This document shows positions 145 through 18,801 of a stretch of 20,000 nt of DNA, piece after piece. The position numbers and the translations under genes were made by a program. The notes beneath the pieces are model-generated. The model saw only the letters and a list, made by a program, of their open reading frames with translations, made no database searches and was not told the DNA's origin. Within the stretch, counting starts at the first letter, position 1. Every line of letters begins with the position of its first letter. The DNA comes from Rotaria socialis (taxonomy: Eukaryota): the NCBI GenBank assembly GCA_905331295.1, contig CAJNYD010000293.1, positions 170,339 to 190,338 on the forward strand, in the 5' to 3' direction.

Positions 145-693
145 TTGGCTTGGGGAGGTGACACCTTATTATCGCCTAATTTTTCATTGGTTCGCACGTT
201 ACCTCTCGATAATGTTGACTTACACAGCTTTCGTTTTTCTGAAGCAACTATACGTGTAACTATTCCTACACATTATATCATTTTGATAAATAATATTTGC
301 TGTTTAAATAATTGTTTATTTACATTAAATATTCGTTCCATTCATATTTCACTTTACTCATCATCAAATATTGTCGATATCAATTGGAATTCATTACATG
401 TATTGTCGTTACTTCCATTGTTAAAATCACTACGCATTGTTGTATATAATGAAAAAAAGATTCTCGATAGCAAAGATTGTCAAATAATCGTCGAAATATT
501 GTCGATGCTCAACAACTTTGCCTTTTGTTTTCGAACAAATAATGATTATTGTAGAGATACTGCTATTGATATCTATGACGTCTATGGTAAATCAATAGTC
601 AACTTGCGCCATCATATATTTACTTATTTACTTGATCAACAATTTGATATCATTATCGAGTCCGATGGCTGCGGACTAGCTGTGTGGTTGTGA
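145..693 (+). CDS. Probable 3' exon or fragment of an uncharacterised protein with weak LRR-like character; true 5' end not identified
   Basis: 182-codon stop-free frame in very AT-rich DNA. It has LRR-like leucine patterns (LFTLNI, LPLLKSLRIVV) and ends in IIIESDGCGLAVWL*. The start is TTG rather than ATG, so the frame is probably spliced or truncated upstream. Confidence 0.4.
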   Translation: MAWGGDTLLSPNFSLVRTLPLDNVDLHSFRFSEATIRVTIPTHYIILINNICCLNNCLFTLNIRSIHISLYSSSNIVDINWNSLHVLSLLPLLKSLRIVVYNEKKILDSKDCQIIVEILSMLNNFAFCFRTNNDYCRDTAIDIYDVYGKSIVNLRHHIFTYLLDQQFDIIIESDGCGLAVWL

Positions 694-2452: not shown

Positions 2453-3371
2453 TAGATATATTTTGAGCATATCAAAACTAGTCTCGTCAACGCGCTATTT
2501 CCGTATATAAAACTTAAAGAAATTTCATTTTTTTATGCAATGATAGAGAAAAAGATGCTCTATTCTTCTATTATATTTCATCACTATTCAACTAATATTA
2601 TAACTACAAAATTTCAATAAGATCTGTTTCATTCACATCTGCGATCGTAACATGAATACCCGTGAGTATTTTTCCAATAACGTTTAACAAAAACAGGATA
2701 GAGAATGGTGATTTTCACCGTTAGAAGGAGGAGATGAAGACGCATCGAATCATATATTGTAGGTTTTTCTAATGTGGCTTCTCAAAGGTTTTTTTGTTCC
2801 ATTTTCTAACCGTCGGAAAGATACTTTTCTTATGAAAAAAGAAAAAGCAAACAAGTTGCTAGAAAATCGTAGTAGAGTTTCAGATAGAATCTATAGTATC
2901 TCTGAATAATTATATTTAAACATCTCGGCCTCTCACAGTTTGTGAATTTGCGATTAGCGGTTTGCATACGCACCTGATTCTTGAAAATAAACGGTAAACA
3001 ACTCATGGTATGTGTTTGTTCTGTAGAAAGCCAATTGACTACTTTACAAGAAAAGCAGGCCAGGAAATTCTGTAATATATACGAATCGATGTATCTTCAT
3101 TTTCGATTTACAACGGTGAAAACCGTAGGTCTCTATCTTGTTACTGTCAAAAGTTATTCAAAACATGCGTGCATTCATATAACCGCCACATTTCATCACA
3201 AACAACTCTGTCGAAATTTTATAACCATGATATTAGCTGAATAGTGATAAACTAGCATAGAAAAATAGAGCATCGTTTTCTCTATTATTGCATTAAAAAA
3301 GTTCCCTCAAGTCTTCTATACGGAAATAAGATAATGACGACACTACTTTTGGTATGCCGTAAGGATATGTA
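2453..3371. mobile_element. Non-autonomous TIR element (MITE), ~0.9 kb, with ~170-bp imperfect terminal inverted repeats flanked by TA (Tc1/mariner-like)
   Basis: The left arm ~2453-2629 (tagatatattttgagcatatcaaaactagtctcgtcaacgcgctatttccgtata...) is the reverse complement of the right arm ~3200-3371 (...tatacggaaataagataatgacgacactacttttggtatgccgtaaggatatgta). No coding capacity is evident. Confidence 0.75.
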
Positions 3372-4290: not shown

Positions 4291-5288
4291 CATGGGCGGC
4301 GCAAGCTAAAGTTTCTAGGGGTAGCAATAAGTTTATTAAACCGATAATGTTTAATCAATTTTCTATGTGCTAAAGAAATAGTTTTGCATCAAATAGCAAA
4401 CAATAAAAGCAAACCTTTTTACAGAAATTGCTAGAAAAATCGCTTACGGCTTCTACTAGAATATCTATGATTCCAGAATAATAAATTCTAAACATGTCAA
4501 CTCTTTTTGCTGTTGTATAGATCTTTCATTAACGGTTTGAATGCACACGTGATAATAGAAAATTCGCTGCACATAACTCGCGAAGTAGATTTATTTTGAA
4601 AGAAGACTGAAAAATCTTAAGAAAATCAGAATGAAAAAACCTATAATATACGATTCGATACATCTTTATGTCCTCTTTTAAACTGTGAAGACCACAGCTC
4701 TCTATCTTGTTCCAATGAAAAGTTACTCAAAAAGTACTCACTTGGCCTTTTTTAATATAATTAGTGCTACTGTCGCATTTTATAGAAAAAGAACAGTTCT
4801 TATGCAGGCTTTTTAATTTTGATATTAAGTGAAGATTGATCAAGTGCCGTAGAAAAAAAAGAGCATTGTTTTCTCTATCACTATATGAAAAAAGAAAATT
4901 GTTTCAAGCTTTCTATACGGAAATACAGTATTGACAACACTACTTTTGGACTGTTCGTAGTACATCATAAAAAAATCGAATTGAATATAAAACAGCGGAA
5001 ATTAATCAAGAGTTTCTTTGTATCAGGAAAGGAAGCGAAAAAATAGTCTTTGTTTCTCCAACCATGTAATGCAAACCGACATCAAACTTGACACAAATAA
5101 ATTTCAGACATACATGATGAAAGTAGAGCCTCAGAAGAAAATAAAGCAAAGCTCATCGTGTATAAGCGTTCTTCTAACAATTATCGAAATGTGTATTATT
5201 AGGGGTAGCAATAGCTTTTTATTGCTACCCTTAAATTTCCATAGGGGTAGCAATTGATACCCCTCGCATAGCTGGCGCGCCGCCTATG
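4291..5288. mobile_element. Non-autonomous hAT-superfamily DNA transposon
   Basis: Perfect 8-bp TSD ATAGTAGC at 4283-4290 and 5289-5296. TIRs CATGGGCGGCGC and GCGCCGCCTATG match at 11/12. The subterminal motif AGGGGTAGCAAT occurs at 4317, 5201 and 5243, with inverted copies at 5221 and 5253. Confidence 0.9.
4406..4968. mobile_element. Diverged partial second copy of the 2453-3371 MITE family (internal part plus right TIR), lying inside the hAT element
   Basis: Collinear direct similarity to ~2843-3371, with shared blocks ttgctagaaaa, tctctatcttgtt..aaaagtta.tcaaaa, gagcat.gttttctctat and ctatacggaaata...acactacttttgg. Boundaries are approximate. Confidence 0.75.
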
Positions 5289-9063: not shown

Positions 9064-9244
9064 GTAATAAACCCTTTTTGGGTATGGGACAAAAGTAATA
9101 AACCATTTTTGGGTATGGGACAAAAGTAATAAACCCTTTTTTGGGTATGGGACAAAAGTAATATACCCTTTGAAGGGTTTATGAAAGTGCAACGTATCAT
9201 AAACCCTTTAAGGGTATATTAATATACGGTTTTTATTTACAGTG
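9064..9244. repeat. Three tandem 31-32 bp repeats plus a hairpin, ending in a second CACTG-type terminus (right end of another transposon family)
   Basis: GTAATAAACCCTTTTTGGGTATGGGACAAAA occurs three times (9064-9157). An inverted repeat taatataccctttgaagggtttatga / tcataaaccctttaagggtatatta spans 9159-9221. The terminus is TTTTTATTTACAGTG|TA at 9244. Confidence 0.75.
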
Positions 9245-9417
9245 TAGTTGTCATGTTAGTTTATTAGTCCAAAAAACTGGTTATTTGTTTGCTGTGGATG
9301 AGTTCGCATACTTGATACGGAGGTAAGTTTATGGTTTTTGTCGGTTCTTTTTTTGAGCAAGACTTATTCACGGGTTTGAAGTAAACAATATTTTTTCTTT
9401 CGTGTCTAAAGAGGGAG

Positions 9418-10330
9418 CCCTAGGAAGGGATGCATGGTTTTCAAGTTGAGCTGCCGTACATATCGTCGATTTCAGTGAGATAAGGAGAACCCCTGAAGGA
9501 TGCCTTTCGTTAGTTCTTCCTTCGATAGTTATCCTCATGTTATCAAAATTTCAGTGAAATGCCAAGGAGGAAACCTTTGTAGCTGTCGAATTGGTTTGAG
9601 TTTGAGCCCAGTTTGTCAAATAGATCTTAGTGAAATATAAAAAGCTCGGAATGAACGATGACTCATAAGCCTTCTATAGAAAGTTGCAGACTTTTTCTTG
9701 AATTTTAACCTATAGTGTGGCTGATATCAATGAAATGAATGAGACTATTTCTATTTGAGATTTCATGAAGAGAGTAATTGACTTATCAGGGAAATGTTTC
9801 AAAGGTTCTTTTCAAAAGCACACACCTGTTCCAGAGTTTTTAAAGTTCAACAATACCACTAGTGTCTAAAAAAGGATGATGAAATGTGGTATTTTTCGTG
9901 AACTTTGCTATCCCTAGGAAATATTCATTCTTGTGAAATAAACCTTTTGGGACATTTTCCTGATAAACCAATTCTTCTCTTCATGAAACCTCAAATAGAA
10001 ATAGTCTCATTCAATTCGCTGATATCTGTGACACTAGGTTAAAATTCACGAAAATGTCTGCAACTTTCTACAGAAGACTGATGACCCATCGTTCATTTCG
10101 AGCTTTTTATATTTCACTAAGATCTATCTGACAAAGTGGGCTCAAACTCAAAATCAATTCGACAGCTACAAAGGTTTCCACCTTGGCATTTCACTGAAAT
10201 TTTGATAACATAAGGATAACTTTCGAACGAAGAACTAACGAAAGCCATCCTTCAGGGGTTTGTCTTATCTCACTGAAATCGACCATATGTACGGCAGCTC
10301 AACTCGAAAACCATGCATCACTTCCAAGGG
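9418..10330. mobile_element. Foldback element / long palindrome with ~390-400 bp inverted arms and a ~110-130 bp spacer
   Basis: 9418-~9810 is the reverse complement of ~9935-10330 over its whole length, with scattered substitutions (e.g. gttgagctgccgtacatat / atatgtacggcagctcaac; tgttatcaaaatttcagtgaaatgccaagg / ccttggcatttcactgaaattttgataaca). No TSD was identified. Confidence 0.85.
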
Positions 10331-10516
10331 GTTTTTCATCAGATAAATATGATTCGGAAAGTTTTATACGAAACCATGTGTACGAAACCATTTTTTCCAT
10401 TTACCAAGAAGAAGTTCCATAGGGAACCTTTTTTCTACGAAACCTAAAAAGGATTTGACCGTGTGCCCGTGCTCAGATCCTTTTTTAGTTCCGTGGAAAA
10501 CCTTTTTTTTACAGTG

Positions 10517-10937
10517 CGAAGAGGAGAATCTCAAGGAACAGTGGTTGTAGGTGGCAATGGAAGTGGAAGTAGTCTCGATCAACTCTCTTACCCACGATAC
10601 GTATTCGTCAATCGAGATCATTCAGTGTACGTGTCTGATCGGGGAAATGATCGTGTGATAAAATGGGTGGAAGATGCAAAACAAGGCATTGTCGTGGCTA
10701 CTTCAAGGAGTCATTGTCGATCAAGTGGGCACTGTCTATGTGGCTGATGGGGGAAATGATCGAATCATGCATTGGCTCAAAGGAGCCACACGGGGAAGTA
10801 TCCTTGTTGGTGGAGATGGCGCAGGAGAACAATCGAACCAACTCAATACACCCTTCGGTTTGTCATTCGATCGACACGGCAATCTCTATGTCGTCGATAG
10901 GGGAAATCGTCGAGTACACCGTTTTGCTATTCAATGA
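10517..10937 (+). pseudogene. NHL-repeat (beta-propeller) gene, 5'-truncated at the transposon end and frameshifted
   Basis: The first frame reads RRGESQGTVVVGGNG..QLSYPRYVFVNRDHSVYVSDRGNDRVIKW..QGIVVA. The second reads QGVIVDQVGTVYVADGGNDRIMHW..QLNTPFGLSFDRHGNLYVVDRGNRRVHRF*. At ~10700-10703 the GGxGxG...QLxxP segment of one repeat is missing and the frame shifts. AATAAA lies at 10982. Confidence 0.85.
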
Positions 10938-11772: not shown

Positions 11773-12035
11773 TCATGCTGTGTAAGTAATAAGAATGTAT
11801 GGTAAAGCTTGAGCATTGCGATAAACAATGTATTCAGGCATGCTTGGATTTGCCAAACCACAAACGGAGTGATAGTTCTTTGGGGCAGCAACTAGAGAGC
11901 GATCTGTTACTGTGATATCGTATAATTGTCCAAGTGTTACTCTACAATAAAACATTTTACAAGTTTGCTCCACTTCTGATTTTTTCGTATATTGATGAGA
12001 CTTGAGAGGATTGCCAGCAAAGTAAGCCCCGTGAC
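11773..12035 (-). CDS. Exon 3: C-terminal half of the PARP catalytic domain (tankyrase-like)
   Basis: Reads GHGAYFAGNPLKSHQYT...MFYCRVTLG...YHSVCG...PEYIVYRNAQALPYILITYTA*, carrying the catalytic Tyr and Glu of the H-Y-E triad. Confidence 0.9.
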
Positions 12036-15000
12036 CTATAACAAAAACAGGAAAGTATGGAATAAAACTGTTTCTATTTTCGGTTCTACGAGGAAAGCAC
12101 TCTCAATTGAAGAGAAAAACGTAAAGATGTTTTATTATTTACAAATCAAATTAGAACAGTTTCTCAATCAGCTATTCGCCACTGGGCTCATTACAATGAA
12201 TTTCATTTTAAACATGTCTTATTTGAAATGCCCTTCTATGGCATCGGCATACATGTTCAACTATGTGCATTTAGCTATTGTCTGTTGATGGCTAAACCCA
12301 ACTTATATTTCAATTAAATTTAAAGAAGAGGCCACAATTTTCATTCTTAGAAAACATTTCGACATACCGTAAAGGCCATCACTGCTAAAATAGCGATCAT
12401 CAAAACCCATTTCCATTATACTTTCGACGTTATCAGCACTTGTACCATGAAAAAGATATAATTCGTTTGCATTGTTATTGACACATTGACCACTAATTAA
12501 GTTTTTCATTGAATGATATACGTCATCGAGACCTGGATTACGAATTTGCACCAATTTTTGAACTTTCACGTTAGGGATAGTTTGCATTTTGTTTTCGATC
12601 AACTGATAGATAGGTGAGCTTTTCGGTACTTCAGTAACAACGAATTTGTCTTTACTCTTGTCTTTTGGAGGCGGTATATAGTTTTGTTCTTCTCCAATTT
12701 GTATCCATCCACGAGCTATCATCTTATCACGGCGAACTTTCATTATGTCATCAAGTGGACGAAGTATGCTGAACTGTTTTTGTTTTATCTTTTGAACAAT
12801 TTGTTCTAAATCAATCAAGAATGGCTCATGACTTAGATTAACACGTTGTCCCAAGTCTGTACAAAAACCACGCATGACATAAAGATTATTGACGTCAAAA
12901 TCAATTCGATCGTGCGTTGCTGCTATGTGATGTTCGATTAAATCCATGGTAAACGGACCAGTAGGATAATCTTCATCAAAAAGTAAAATATAGCGCCAAT
13001 TTTCTCGAAATACTTCTGTTTGAATTTCATACTTATGCATTTCATCAAGAAAATGCTCAATATCAAAATAGTGATCTATTGGTAATTGGCAATCGAGATC
13101 CGATGGAATACAGGCTTTGTCTATGCAAGGAATCTTATTTGGGCGTGTAACCCATTGTTTGGGTTGTATAGACGTTGGTGGTCGAGCGGTTTGGTTGGCT
13201 ACTATCCAATCGCGAACGAAGCCACCTTCTAATTTACAGTGAAATATACATACAGCTATCCATGCGACAACTTCCATTCGAGTTTCTCGTGTTGCAGCCG
13301 GACCGCGTAGCCTTGACCATAGACCAACCGGCGTCATTGTTGTGTCTGTTATACGTTTAATGCGGTCTTCAATATCAGGCGAAGGTTGTTTTGTAACAGA
13401 ATCAATATAACGACGTGGCAATACACCGGAATCCAAATGCATAGCTACGCATAATTGAAGCCATCGCACAAAAGACTTAAGCTCCTTATGTACTTTTTTG
13501 TAATTCTTTTCACGAGCCTTGATGACAATCTTGCATTGATCTTTTTCTTTGAGAAATATTATCTTCACTTGTTTCTGAGCTCTCCAACGCCATCCCATCG
13601 GCCGAAAAATGTGCAGTTCTTCAGTAAGATCTTCAACTTTTCGTTTCAAACCAGTATCAGTTTCGTTGACTGGTATCAATGGTATTTCATTCTTCACTAC
13701 AAGTTTTTGTCGAACACATAGTTCCGTTGTTAATACACGACCAGCTGATCCCGCTAAAGTTAATTGGTCGTCATGCAGTTCACAGTTGACACCATTGGAT
13801 GCCAGCAAAAAGTCTTGGCTTTCTTTGATGTTGTCATTAAATAGTTTTATCTCTGTTTCACTCATTGGAATATTACGTTCGAGAGCCCTATCGAGCCAGT
13901 CAGATTGTATTTCACCAAGAAACGAAAGGATCGATCGAGCTCGAATATCCGATGAGATACGAATATCACGTGCAAGTATTAATGCAACCGGATTAGCACT
14001 TAGCTTACGTGCAAGTGTCGATGTAGAGTCGAGAACCGCTGTTTTCTGTTTTTCTGTTATGCCTGCAGCAGTATAACAAATGAACCGATGTTTTCTACCT
14101 TGGATCTCTGCAGCTGATAGATAAACATTGTTTGAATACCCATTAAGAAGCGCACGAGCAACCGGTTCCCAATATCCATTGGAAGAACACTGAGCTGCTG
14201 TACAATACTCATTTGGTGAACGAAAAAACTTTTCAAATAACGAATATCTTAAGATGGCACGTTTGATGTAATGTTTCATGAATGATAAGCCAGTCTCTTG
14301 ACATACATTGTCGACGTTAAACGTACATGGCGGTTGAACTAGCTTTTTAGCAAGAATAGTATCCATCACATTAAGTAATGTCATAAAGTCACCCTCAACT
14401 TTCTTATATTTACGGGGAAGATTACGTAGAATAGAAGAGGTATTGAGTACACCGAGGATAGCTGCTAGCCGTAGAACATCTCGACCACATTTATAGTCTT
14501 TCAGTGCCGCTAAAACTGCTCGACTCATTTCAACGCTACCAAAATCAGGTAATTTAGAAATAGAGAGGCCAATTGACGTGAAATCTCTTTTCAAATCAAG
14601 AATATCAAGTTGATGTAATCGTTTTATGGCTGTATCAATAGCTTGTTCACTCGGTGCATTAGGTAGCCATTTCTTGAGATCATTGAGTCCACATTTCAAT
14701 GGCAATCGACGAAGTGAGAATTCAATATTGCTTAATTCTGTTTGACATATCTGTGGTTCAGGAAATTTTTTGTTCTTAGGATCAAAGGTGTATAATGGAT
14801 AGTATTCACCAGGTCGCGTTCGACCCAATCGTCCCTGACGTTGCTTTATAGTTGATTCAGCCGCATTCATCTCACGTAGCTCAGTTGAATCTGTCAATGG
14901 ATCATATACAGGAATATGAATGAGACCAGTGTCTATTACATATTTAAGCGAGGGAAAAGTTAGAGATGTTTCGGCTACCGTCGTCGAAAAGAAGATTTGT

Positions 15001-18000
15001 TTCGTTTTAATGAGTTGCTGTTGTTCCATCGATGATTGTGATTGAATCAATGGAAAAGCTGATAATCCTTTCAATAGTTTCAATAACTTTATAGATTGTG
15101 TGACTTCGGTATTTGATTTAACAAAACATAGTATTTGTTCTTCTCTCTCGATTTGTTGATGCAATCGAGCAACTAAATCAATTAGATTCTCACTACAATA
15201 CGAGTTTTCGTTGATACGATTCAAAGTCGACGTTTTTATTTGTATTTCATGGAATTTGAATTCAAAGAAGAGTTGTGCTATACATGGATTAAGAGTGGCT
15301 GATGATATTATGATTTTCAGTTTCGAATGTAAATGAGGATTCTTTTCGAGAAATCGAGCTAAAAATGCAAGGCACAAATCAATATTAATTGAACGTTCAT
15401 GAACTTCATCGATAAAAAATACAAGTCCACGTTTGCTAGTTTTCAATTGATGGATTAGATATCGTTCACGATGTAATAAGTATTCTTTAAGTAGTCCATC
15501 AGTCAAATAGAGTATTGGTGCACTCGAAAAATTGCTTGAACGTGCTCCTGACACTGCCCAACCACTTAACGTTGAACTTTTCATACTCGTGTTGACACGT
15601 TCGGATAAGAGATTGCACGGTAAGCGACGTGGCTGCGTCACTAATATTTTCTCGTAGCCATCAGCAGCGAGCAATGATGGCAAGAGAGTTGATTTACCCG
15701 ATCCCGTTGCAGTCGATATGGCAACGACCGTGTTTTGATTGATTTTTTCCAATAGATCAACTGATGAATCGAATAAAGGTAATTGCAATCGAAAACATTC
15801 AAGTATGATATGAATTCTATGAATTAGAGATGATAGTAACGAAAAATGATGAGATTCATGGCCAATATAGTCCTTAGAAGTTTCAAGCAATTCTTTTAAC
15901 TTTTGTACATGTAAATCTAGAATTATCAAAACTAAATGTTTCAGATAATCATAAAAAAAATATATTACCTTTTGCTGTAATTGATGTATTCACACGTTGA
16001 ATACCAGCTAAACATAAGTCCTCCATTTTCATGAGGTATTGTTTTAAAGCATTTCGTTTGAGCTCTTCGACTAATGTCATGATGTCTTTTTTTTTCAGAT
16101 ACTCACTTGTTTCCATTCTAAGTCGTTTCCACCAATTGGAAGCGTTTCGGATCATATCATCAAGAATACTTTTTACCTTTTGACCAATGTAAAGATCAAA
16201 CTGCTGCTCGAATTCTTCACGCTTACGTTTGATTAACATTTCGAAAATTTCGACAAAGATTTTCCAATTCGCCATGTTGCATTTTATTTGTGCCTTACCC
16301 AATTCTTTAACGCTTCTCTTAAGAAATGATTCCACACAGTTAGTCAGCGTTTTTCTGTAATCATTTTGTTGCTTCTGTAGATGCCTAATGATCCATGTCG
16401 TTCGATAGCAAATAGCTTTCATCTCTACATGATGAACCGAATAAGCTTCTACAATCCATGAGTATGAGCTACTATTGGTTTGGCTTATTTCTTGACATAT
16501 GTTTATCTTTTCCTCATGAGATGATGTTTTGCCCGAAAAGTTAAGTGTCTTTAAATATTTTTCCACTGTAGTCACTTGCAGTTGAATATTATCAGTAAAT
16601 GGTATATCATATTTAATTACAATTAAGTCTTTCACTACTTGATCTTCTTTTCGACGTTGGTTTTCATAGAATTCAACTTTATTTCGTTCATTCTCTAGAT
16701 CGCTTTCAAGATCGTAGCATTTTTTTTTAATATCATCCAACTCTTTTAATTTCATTTTCAATACTTCTTCTTGTTCTTCATGATTCTTCTGCAACAATGT
16801 GAATTCGTCAGACAATAGTGAATTTCCAGATGTATCACATATTATGTTAAGTAGCTCATTTTGTTTTGAAGGTTGCATTTTCTTTTTTTCGATATCCTCT
16901 AGTTTTCGATTTTCTTCTTCAACTGTCTGTTGATATTGTTTCATGATAGCATTTAATCTATCAAGATCTTCTCGCTTCTTTTTAATATTTGTTCGAATTT
17001 CTTCTTCTTTGGCAGCATGATCATTCTCTGTATTATCATTATTGATCAACTCTGCATCCTCGTCATCCATTGATATTGTTTCATGTTCTTCCTTCAATAC
17101 CGATGTCGGATTTTCTGAGCTTCTCTCATCTTTATCATTAGTATTATTATCGATTTTATCATCGTTCACATAAAGTCTAACATTCTCAGTTGCAACCGAT
17201 TCATCCTTCTCATCAGACAAACTGATCTCTTCATTTTCTTGGCTATCAGCTGTTGCAAGCGTGCACAAAAGCGATTTTCTCAACGGTTCTGGTGGTTGAT
17301 TCTGTCGAGAAATGTCTTGAAAATTGTCGATAGGCATAATTCGTTTCATTGTTCGATCGACACTAACAAATCTTGGTAACCATCGTATATATCCAGCTAT
17401 TTTTCGGTTTACATCTTGGAAAGAAAATGATTCTAGATTGAAAGTGATTAATCCAAGAAGCTGAGTACGAATGGTGAGATACCGGAGATGTTGATTCATT
17501 GCTTCTTCAATTGCTGCGTTGAGAAACTCTTCGGCATTATACCATGAATTGAGGCGATAATCAAATTGATCAGAATTGAAAATAGTTGGAATGTCTATGC
17601 TCTTCAATTGTGGAGATTCTTTTTCTTTATCAACAACACAACCATGTTGTGTAAACATAATTTGCCATATGGATACAATATCGAAATTATATACACTCGA
17701 TCCGCGACATCGAATCCATGCTTGATTTTCATTTACCTGTGTACTATTACCTGATTTGAGAAATCTTCTCATCGATACTGTATACATTTGATCTTCGACA
17801 TTGAGAAAAATATCCAAATCTGACGTCTCTCTCAACGTTTTACACAGTATTTTAGATTCCTTTTCTGCAAATTTTTGCCAATCTAGTTGATGTAATGGCT
17901 TGAATTCCCAAGTACAGTTGTACTCAAGTAGACTTGTATCATATTTCAATTTTGATATCTCGTCGTCAATAGTCATCGTTGGTAAATCACAACTCCGAGA

Positions 18001-18801
18001 TCCTTGTAACAAGTAATGGAGGACGAAATGATTGCGAAAAATATCGAAAAGAGCCGGATTGTGCTTGGCAATCATAGTGGGCGTTTCTTCCTTTTTATTT
18101 TGCACATAACAGTTAGCACCTTTATGAAGAAGATAACGAACAATATCTGCATGCCCACTGCTACAAGCTATATGCAGAGGAGTATCCATATTTGCCGATG
18201 AATCGTTTTGATTCTGAGCATTTACAGAGCATTTTGCTTCTTCAATTAAATACTTCATAATTTCTAAATGATTATTCGCAGTTGCTACATATAATAGTGT
18301 GTATCCATTCAACAGAGGTTGATCTTTATGGGATGGGTTTTTAGAAAGAAACTCCTTAACAATGCTAAGATTTCCACTTTGACATTCTCGACATGCTTGA
18401 ATAGAATCTATGAAGATAGCCAAGTTATGCGCAAATATCAAGAGATTGTCACTGGAAAGTACTTCAATGAAACTGTCACCATCAAAATGGAAATCATACA
18501 AAAAGTCAAGGAAGTAGTTATATGTCGTCTCGTCATAATTAGGTAAGTGACGTAATTGTTTAATATTGATTTGAATTTGGCTCGTAATATCAGTCAATAA
18601 AGTTTTTACCTCTTCCGATGGAGGAAATATACATAGTTCTTCACAATCGGTTGGCTCAGCGAATGTTGATTTATCATCGATTTTTTCCTCTTGATTGTCT
18701 ATCTGTGTCGATTCTTTCACCTTCGTCAAACAGGATTGAACATCACTTAGAATTAAAGAACAAATTTTTGTAAGTTCCTCAGTGAATAGTGATAATGCCA
18801 T
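11773..18801 (-). CDS. Multidomain ankyrin / WWE-like / coiled-coil / DEAH-RHA helicase / nucleotidyltransferase / PARP protein (3 exons, 2214 aa)
   Basis: Exons 18801-15969, 15916-12368 and 12035-11773 total 6645 nt (2215 codons) with no internal stop. Intron 1 is 15968-15917 (52 nt, AG|GTAATA..TTCTAG; an alternative in-frame acceptor lies at 15932). Intron 2 is 12367-12036 (332 nt, G|GTATGT..TTATAG), and its splicing rebuilds the PARP motif GLYGHGAYFA. Confidence 0.9.
12368..15916 (-). CDS. Exon 2: DEAH/RHA-family RNA helicase with HA2/OB-like region, nucleotidyltransferase-like domain and N-terminal half of PARP
   Basis: Helicase motifs: I ATGSGKST, Ia TQPRR, Ib TDGLL, II DEVH, III SAT, V TTVAETSLT, VI QRQGRLGR, followed by PQICQTELS and a GDFMTLLNV HA2-type motif. 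NTase motifs: EGGFVRDW, SDLD, RIDFDVNNL. PARP motif: NELYLFHGT..IMEMGFDDRY. Confidence 0.9.
15969..18801 (-). CDS. Exon 1: ankyrin repeats, WWE-like domains, acidic linker and coiled coil
   Basis: Ankyrin consensus in GYTLLYVATANNHLEIMKYLIE and DTPLHIACSSGHADIVRYLLHKGAN. WWE-like segments TWEFK..W.KF..ES.IL and SWY..E...AIEEA. An E/K/Q-rich heptad region spans aa ~600-725. Confidence 0.85.

Follow-up and report, generated by a model that had tools for sequence, protein, structure and literature searches.

Does a single animal gene encode an RNA helicase, a nucleotidyltransferase (NTase) and a poly(ADP-ribose) polymerase (PARP) in one chain, and if so, what might such a protein do? The question is raised by a 20,000-nucleotide stretch of the bdelloid rotifer Rotaria socialis (GenBank assembly GCA_905331295.1, contig CAJNYD010000293.1, positions 170,339 to 190,338, forward strand), which we call the window. 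A preliminary description of it, made from the letters alone, had joined three open reading frames (ORFs) through two phase-1 introns into one protein of 2,214 amino acids (aa). Judged from sequence, the fusion is real, and its product may, as we tentatively propose, mark the ends of RNA.

A helicase-NTase-PARP fusion gene

The gene model has three exons and two introns:
15969..18801, minus strand: exon 1, aa 1-944, with the N-terminal region, ankyrin repeats, two WWE-like domains, an acidic/coiled-coil segment and a helical region
15917..15968, minus strand: intron 1, 52 nt, GT..AG, phase 1, absent from many paralogues
12368..15916, minus strand: exon 2, aa 945-2127, with the helicase, HA2/OB, KH-like linker, NTase and N-terminal half of the PARP
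12036..12367, minus strand: intron 2, 332 nt, GT..AG, phase 1
11773..12035, minus strand: exon 3, aa 2128-2214 plus stop, the C-terminal half of the PARP with Tyr2132 and Glu2195

Three long minus-strand ORFs (18804-15949, 15989-12303 and 12102-11773) underlie the model. Once spliced, the exons give 2,214 codons with a single terminal stop, and the product has no differences from the NCBI model P0237 (CAF3242491.1, Rotaria socialis), which bears out the single protein first described, as does the uninterrupted frame of a homologous locus (L020, below). Two R. magnacalcarata models, also of 2,214 aa, differ from it at 141-147 positions (93-94% identity). The domain order given earlier likewise stands, in L020 too: ankyrin repeats, two degenerate WWE domains, a coiled coil, a DEAH helicase with HA2/OB, a KH-like linker, the NTase and the PARP. 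The motifs of the helicase, the NTase and the H-Y-E PARP are intact, as had been claimed, with their residues conserved across 69-250 homologues.

Both introns can be traced in the relatives. At 30 of 31 homologous sites the PARP codon split by intron 2 likewise carries a GT..AG intron, of 44-619 nt, and the remaining site is intronless; 34 sites were compared, three of them without the downstream exon on the contig, and many sites are the same gene from different samples. This figure replaces a count of 34 GT donors in 34 sites, since the GT in L020 belongs to a glycine codon. Intron 1 is absent in 11 loci (several of them the same gene), which read through in frame with all 101 residues aligned and are 0-3 aa longer than the spliced product. 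The frame is also kept by 37-nt and 76-nt versions of intron 1 and by a 266-nt version of intron 2, so the exact splice acceptors rest on the NCBI model and the homologues, not on RNA. Of two sequencing runs consulted, X1 crosses intron 1 unspliced, as DNA would, and X2 contains nothing of relevance; they weigh neither for nor against expression.

We considered whether separate adjacent genes had been wrongly spliced together. In favour of such an artefact, the junctions are supported by homologues and the NCBI model rather than by RNA reads, and some NCBI models split the locus (P0232, P0233 and P0236). However, stop-free ORFs of 2,111 codons in L008 and 2,231 codons in L020 were found, the latter running without interruption from the ankyrin repeats to the end of the PARP with the ankyrin, helicase, NTase and PARP motifs all in place. 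Transcriptome-derived protist proteins also span helicase-NTase, helicase-NTase-PARP or KH-NTase-PARP. The artefact is thus largely refuted and very improbable, and the fusion is taken as real because relatives lacking either intron exist, including the uninterrupted frame of L020.

The NTase is a head-only domain of class II type

12696..13394, minus strand: head-only class II-type NTase, about aa 1786-2018, with G1842-G1843, R1846-D1847, D1884, D1886, D1936, D1950, R2006 and K2009

Pfam calls ankyrin, DEAD/Helicase_C and PARP on the window protein and leaves the NTase uncalled. An AlphaFold model of aa 1718-2214 (from P0232, identical in sequence; predicted local distance difference test score 93) places it in the Pol-beta superfamily with the class II head fold. 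Residues 59-306 of the model superpose on 3wfo, TENT5B, 3aql and 3h37 with VIA Z of 9.9, 8.8, 8.8 and 8.8 over 162-176 residues. Across 250 sequences the GG..RD motif, the DxD and the third carboxylate are kept in 245-249 (G1842 in 248, G1843 in 245, D1884 in 248, D1886 in 248, and Asp or Glu at 1936 in 248). At aa 1940 (12930-12932), four residues from the third catalytic Asp, the window has His where 113 of 124 homologues have Pro; this looks like a polymorphism, since the R. socialis records P0236 and P0243 have Pro.

The domain had been described as of CCA/poly(A)-polymerase type. The class II head is confirmed by the model; identity with a CCA-adding enzyme or a poly(A) polymerase is not. 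Class II CCA-adding enzymes, bacterial poly(A) polymerase I (PAP I) and TENT5/FAM46 share with it the head fold, the GGxxRD, the DxD and the third carboxylate, whereas the rotifer domain has a long insertion between GG and DxD and lacks a body and tail. The structural matches end near residue 196-217 of enzymes of 388-425 aa and the PARP follows directly, so there is no helical neck, body or tail. In motif B (RRD), aligned by comparing motifs with those of E. coli cca and pcnB rather than by superposition, the central Arg position holds Ile in 212, Ala in 13, Leu in 8, Val in 6 and Gly in 5 of the 250 sequences. EDxxR is the amino-acid template motif of CCA-adding enzymes according to the portion of PMC7014341 available to us; counting back from a conserved R-x-x-K-M, its Asp is kept in 218 of 250 and its templating Arg position is Val, Leu, Met or Ile in 242. 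Since both arginines are replaced and the body and tail are missing, we rule out a CCA-adding enzyme and PAP I alike. Only the GGxxRD motif was recovered by hhalign against E. coli CCA and PAP, and phrog_1614, which matches E. coli cca and pcnB, weakly matched 7 of 32 members.

The closest resemblances are to viral proteins. The top ESM Atlas matches are Gad2-family clusters (0.95; 178-185 of 256 features; Pfam share 12-56%; recognition 2488), the link to PF26128 (Gad2) being seen only through Atlas features. A DUF5769 profile matched 15 of 32 members (best E 8e-7), with 13.9 bits for the window domain at a cut-off of 26.1. BFVD gave a Pithovirus "Poly A polymerase head" (E 4e-6) and a moumouvirus "NT pol-beta-like" protein (E 1e-6). 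Gad2 is a phage anti-Gabija protein and a predicted NTase, in the accessible part of its source (10.1101/2023.05.01.538930). In a Pandoravirus NTase RRD is replaced by DFD, EDxxR is absent and two basic residues lie downstream, as far as the seen text of 10.1101/2023.12.02.569716 goes; by that description this cluster 7 enzyme matches the rotifer domain in all three respects. The viral head-only NTases (Gad2, DUF5769, Pithovirus, Pandoravirus) differ from the rotifer domain in standing alone or being fused to BTB or F-box adaptors. We found no close relatives of the NTase in viral contigs, prokaryotic genome contigs or phage records with exact-word and tblastn searches, which are insensitive at such distance.

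These resemblances bear on a different kind of chemistry, in which the NTase would put a nucleoside monophosphate on protein or cap the ADP-ribose made by the PARP, and the helicase would only localise or trigger it. The Gad2-family clusters, the DUF5769 matches, the DFD-type motif B with its replaced arginine, the absent EDxxR and the two basic residues shared with the BTB-fused Pandoravirus NTase all fit such a nucleotidylase. Against this, the seen part of the source does not state the substrate of Gad2, and the make-up and neighbours of the family, given below, speak for RNA. We regard nucleotidylation of protein or ADP-ribose as unlikely.

The PARP is tankyrase-like

11776..12662, minus strand: tankyrase-like PARP catalytic domain, about aa 2030-2214, split by intron 2, with H2101, Y2132 and E2195

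The PARP (Pfam E 3e-19) keeps the H-Y-E triad, with His in 68, Tyr in 68 and Glu in 63 of 69 homologues. Its model superposes best on tankyrase-2 (VIA Z 25.1, root-mean-square deviation 1.6 over 179 residues), and tankyrase 1/2 is also the best sequence match (E 1.5e-30), with the catalytic domains of PARP12/13/14 at E 1e-26 to 1e-20. The position of the tankyrase Met before G-x-G-x-Y-F-A, presumably an acceptor-site residue tied to chain type, varies (Leu 19, Ala 15, Asn 9, Tyr 6 and Met 5 of 69). Because of this variability, mono- or short-chain ADP-ribosylation seems more likely than long polymers.

Tankyrases have five ankyrin repeat clusters and a SAM domain before the PARP. The rotifer protein has a single ankyrin block (aa 140-248) and no SAM match at E <=0.1, which rules out tankyrase identity; it shares ankyrin repeats and a PARP with tankyrase 1/2, and differs in its short ankyrin block and the inserted helicase and NTase. 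Members of the ZAP/PARP12/PARP14 clade combine CCCH zinc fingers or macrodomains with WWE and have the catalytic Glu replaced. The C-terminal PARP is shared with ZAP/PARP13, PARP12, PARP14 and PARP9-DTX3L, and so probably are the tandem WWE-like and the KH-like domains of PARP14/DTX3L type, but the rotifer protein has no zinc-finger, macro or RRM Pfam match, carries its own DEAH helicase and NTase and keeps H-Y-E; the missing Pfam matches and retained Glu exclude it from that clade. Two to five tandem PARP domains related to that of the fusion occur in P0157, P0209 and P0218.

The helicase, the KH-like linker and the N-terminal parts

14745..15794, minus strand: DEAH/RHA helicase RecA1-RecA2, about aa 986-1335, with K1019, D1114-E-V-H1117, S-A-T 1150-1152 and motif VI at 1303-1310
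13905..14744, minus strand: HA2/ratchet and OB region, about aa 1336-1615
13440..13904, minus strand: KH-like linker, probably two domains, about aa 1616-1770
18052..18396, minus strand: ankyrin repeats, about aa 136-250
17317..17934, minus strand: two degenerate WWE-like domains, about aa 290-375 and 405-495, weakly based
16642..17304, minus strand: acidic linker and charged coiled-coil-like segment, about aa 500-720, from composition only

Motifs I, Ia, II (DExH), III (SAT), V and VI of a DEAH/RHA helicase are present together with HA2/OB, and the motifs are near-invariant in 73 homologues. The protein has RecA1, RecA2, HA2 and OB in common with Prp43/DHX15, DHX8/Prp22 and HrpA (E 1e-37 to 1e-30; the Prp43/DHX15/DHX8 matches reach about aa 1480-1565), and differs from them in the fusion to an NTase and a PARP and in a third position of motif VI that is Gln, Leu or Lys. 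An HA2_N profile match was seen in a Euglena homologue.

The segment that follows had been called a linker. Its position is right, but it is more than a plain linker and appears to hold KH-like domains of PARP14/DTX3L type: aa 1718-1768 match KH domains at VIA Z of about 5, and weak profile matches to KH_DTX3L, KH_SLS1 and KH_PARP14 occur in 4, 4 and 2 of 20 members. A GxxG is present in the linkers of 19 of the 20 and follows, in the alignment, a strand near the end of the first, unmodelled repeat; in KH domains the GxxG loop joins helices one and two.

Towards the N-terminus, the ankyrin repeats match Pfam Ank_2 at E 3.5e-19. The WWE profile PF02825 gave weak matches in 7 of 11 aligned members (best E 0.0015) and none on the window protein; the paralogue P0061 matches WWE at E 1e-10, and the top Atlas match for the region is WWE (0.80), which we treat as a lead. 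The acidic/coiled-coil segment has 16-37% identity to homologues of other species outside R. magnacalcarata. No significant match came from profile searches of PDB sequences with the regions of the NTase, the WWE and the KH-like linker, and NCBIfam and PADLOC yielded no more than ankyrin and helicase side-matches.

A multi-copy family of bdelloids with protist members

The gene does not stand alone; our homologue searches (93 of 1,143 candidates, 27 of 88 longer and 255 of 4,195 short matches, 120 of the last listed; 185 representatives, 150 listed) place it in a multi-copy bdelloid family with protist members. All organisms named among the candidate, longer and short matches listed are bdelloids. 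Adineta vaga has at least seven paralogous loci with helicase and PARP, and an eighth model with the NTase only. P0110 (A. vaga I4U23_022716), P0112 and P0115 (280-353 aa) seem to hold the NTase alone and end soon after it, as stand-alone paralogues or fragments. Head-to-tail pairs occur at L008, L012, L014 and L017, and divergent paralogues have 50-57% NTase identity to the Rotaria socialis gene.

Of 30 proteins whose records were consulted, three come from protist transcriptomes: a helicase-NTase protein without PARP from Euglena gracilis, a helicase-NTase-PARP protein from an MMETSP marine protist and a KH-NTase-PARP region from Stenamoeba stenopodia. In a tree of the NTase the named bdelloids group loosely (92/62), with Stenamoeba and one further protein as sister and the rest in deeper clades; the tree is midpoint-rooted, built from 63 of 64 chosen rows (P0087 dropped) and has several long branches, and it can identify neither a donor nor which way a transfer went. 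The distribution fits transfer from protists, with contamination of the transcriptomes as an alternative.

Helicase is present in 85 of the 86 NTase-bearing proteins of at least 1,500 aa, and helicase, NTase and PARP together in 78, in searches whose NTase or NTase-PARP seeds bias them toward the full architecture. Five of the 86, including the Euglena product, have a complete NTase and end 11-44 aa past it without a PARP. By these counts the NTase travels more tightly with the helicase than with the PARP; its persistence without the PARP, and hardly ever without the helicase in long proteins, argues against nucleotidylation of ADP-ribose or protein. Where all three are present the gap between the NTase and PARP profile matches has a median of 7 residues (n=78). 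P0089, P0231, P0271, P0392 and P0141, which take in an ankyrin-WW-helicase-NTase clade and the Euglena protein, stop after the NTase and have no PARP.

The ratio of nonsynonymous to synonymous rates (dN/dS) in close pairs has a median of 0.34 for the helicase (26 of 190 pairs), 0.36 for the NTase (38 of 528), 0.53 for the WWE (10 of 66), 0.53 for the KH (3 of 231) and 0.56 for the N-terminal half of the PARP (17 of 276).

Purifying selection throughout would suit a stress or housekeeping role, in which the protein repairs or turns over the animal's own RNA or ribonucleoprotein damaged by desiccation, radiation or a ribotoxin and senses no foreign RNA. What is reported on expression in bdelloids points the same way in part. 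In the accessible text of PMC10809525, 9-17 PARP genes are up after rehydration or radiation, and in that of PMC11258130 RNA ligases are up in fungal infection. The A. vaga gene FUN_001161 has the same Pfam set and a "tankyrase-like protein" (ACD54812.1) as best match in the seen rows of PMC12220480; it is counted in the family by Pfam set only, from a table view of 14 of 27 PF00271 rows. According to those rows it is expressed without challenge, at a low level (about 1.1-1.4 in the mean columns), and is down in spaceflight (log2 fold change -0.48, false discovery rate 1e-4). The spread of the family runs against a housekeeping role, being patchy over bdelloids and scattered aquatic protists, with no other named animal among the matches listed; the many divergent paralogues and the tandem pairs are likewise atypical of housekeeping genes. 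We hold repair or turnover of own RNA to be distinctly unlikely.

Matching of I4U23 numbers to the FUN identifiers of PMC12220480 was rejected, since FUN_004378 has no Pfam match, and the expression values are not tied to named paralogues. The 12 of 16 Nowell 2024 supplement files that were searched contain no "tankyrase" rows. As a separate observation, the seen part of Table S2 of PMC12220480 has an A. vaga helicase-HA2-WWE-PARP gene, FUN_000628-T1, whose best matches come from Macrostomum lignano and Mizuhopecten; fusions of helicase and PARP may be more widespread among invertebrates.

RNA-end enzymes beside some family genes

Two of seven distinct long homologous loci carry a gene pair next to the family gene, one member encoding an oligoribonuclease that is greatly extended at its N-terminus and the other being VP39-like (PF01358). 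The pair lies upstream of the family gene in L004/L007 and downstream of it in L020:
L004:3-1953: the neighbour pair
L007:1-1744: the neighbour pair
L020:6812-8993: the neighbour pair

The oligoribonuclease matches PDB Orn at E 4e-23, and the VP39-like gene is of the cap 2'-O-methyltransferase/poly(A)-polymerase subunit type. The family genes of the two pair-bearing loci have 64% NTase identity. At the position aligned to VP39 K41, which we take to be the catalytic residue, the L004 protein has Lys and the L020 protein Gln; because of this replacement the VP39-like protein of L020 may be a pseudo-enzyme. That both genes of the pair encode RNA-end enzymes favours RNA or an oligonucleotide as the substrate of the NTase and, where the pair is present, is a further point against the nucleotidylase.

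The oligoribonuclease also invites another reading, in which an RNA-sensing helicase would trigger the NTase to make a diffusible oligo- or dinucleotide from NTPs, much as OAS or cGAS do but on a class II scaffold. This signal would control the PARP or another effector and be erased by the oligoribonuclease encoded alongside. A head-only NTase without a primer-binding body or tail, the adjoining oligoribonuclease in two of the seven long loci and an NTase that directly abuts the PARP are what a signal synthase might look like. However, structures of OAS, cGLR and CD-NTase rank below those of class II (Cv-cGLR1 Z 5.3 and CdnE 5.1, against 7.3), and five members lack the PARP. We know of no class II signal synthase, and such a synthase is in our judgement improbable here.

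Other family genes have other neighbours: reverse-transcriptase elements, MACPF, FG-GAP, 5'-nucleotidase, GT25 and EEP phosphatase genes at L009, L010, L018 and L024, and a GH3 gene near the locus L008. In the window itself, the following lie outside the gene:
145-693, plus strand: 182-codon open frame with no Pfam match, possibly the 3' part of a gene that the window edge truncates
2453-2567, 3077-3371 and 4646-4966: dispersed direct and inverted repeats of 58-113 nt
9069-9171: three tandem copies of a 31-32-nt unit
9405-10343: element of about 940 bp with nested inverted arms 82-92% complementary, like a miniature inverted-repeat transposable element or a foldback element
10448-10937, plus strand: NHL-repeat fragment (Pfam NHL E 1e-6) lying in two frames, probably the remains of a pseudogene

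What the protein may do

Our preferred reading is that the product is an RNA-end-marking defence or surveillance enzyme, which we put forward at slightly less than an even chance. DEAH helicases engage RNA at a single-stranded 3' tail and translocate in the 3'-to-5' direction. The helicase would load on such a tail and, together with the KH-like linker, present the RNA end to the NTase; these two parts would supply the grip on RNA because the NTase has no body or tail domain. The head-only NTase would then extend the 3' end of the RNA, or a short oligonucleotide, by a few nucleotides without a template. The adjacent PARP would ADP-ribosylate its own protein or partners, probably with single units or short chains, and the tandem WWE, ankyrin and coiled-coil parts could gather the modified complexes, by analogy with the WWE pair of ZAP/PARP13, whose WWE2 binds poly(ADP-ribose) in the accessible part of PMC10057411. 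The target would be foreign or aberrant RNA, such as that of a virus, a retroelement or damaged RNA.

For RNA-end marking we count the co-occurrence of NTase and helicase, the class II fold, the conserved Asp residues, the adjoining KH-like domain and the Orn/VP39 neighbours, as well as the A. vaga paralogues (seven or more), the tandem pairs and the close-pair dN/dS medians (0.34-0.56). The sensor and effector role first proposed is plausible from the copy number, the tandem pairs and the viral-type NTase.

Several points weigh against this reading. The catalytic outputs and their coupling are deduced from sequence and model. The isolated NTase model finds the same top structures at VIA Z <=7.3, in the common-fold range, with a best Foldseek E of 0.003. 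Its closest look-alikes are not known RNA-tailers, Gad2 being an anti-Gabija protein of a phage and the Pandoravirus enzyme BTB-fused, and the KH-like domains of PARP14/DTX3L mediate protein contacts in the seen text of PMC11080071. The Orn/VP39 pair is absent from five of the seven loci and from the window, where 1.2 kb upstream are covered; its linkage may be inherited synteny, and the family copy at L004 has in-frame stops. No pair, domain or bin had dN/dS >1 in pairwise NG86 comparisons. Finally, ADP-ribosyltransferase Gene Ontology terms were not enriched in fungus-induced A. ricciae genes (8 of 98, false discovery rate 0.40).

A bolder version, to which we give a small but real chance, is a single-chain immune machine of bdelloids and protists, probably horizontally gained, in which the helicase would sense RNA, the viral-type class II NTase write a mark or messenger and the PARP relay it, with Orn as eraser and the VP39-like protein as cofactor.

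Relation to known systems and significance

Each module is known in kind; their combination is undescribed. It had been stated that no characterised protein carries all three enzymes, and this agrees with the literature available to us: we found no description of the helicase-NTase-PARP architecture there, including the accessible parts of PMC7824862, PMC9503650 and PMC3417536, with subscription papers and bioRxiv supplements outside this scope. Database records name the members "Poly [ADP-ribose] polymerase" or "unnamed protein product", the NTase having been missed by automated annotation. In TRAMP (Mtr4-Trf4) and MOV10-TUT4/7 a helicase works together with a nucleotidyltransferase that marks RNA by adding non-templated nucleotides at the 3' end; unlike the rotifer protein, those are separate polypeptides with class I NTases and no PARP.

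Three enzymes that handle RNA or NAD, and that are separate in animal RNA surveillance, are here joined in one chain, so their coupling is testable with one recombinant protein. The group of NTases to which this one appears related (Gad2, DUF5769 and the head-only enzymes of giant viruses) is widespread and biochemically dark, and the product of the rotifer enzyme would inform the whole group. The immune machine, if it exists, would give an animal a class II equivalent of OAS/cGAS signalling. The antiviral immunity of bdelloids is little known, and the rotifer fusion family offers a concrete, multi-copy candidate for it.

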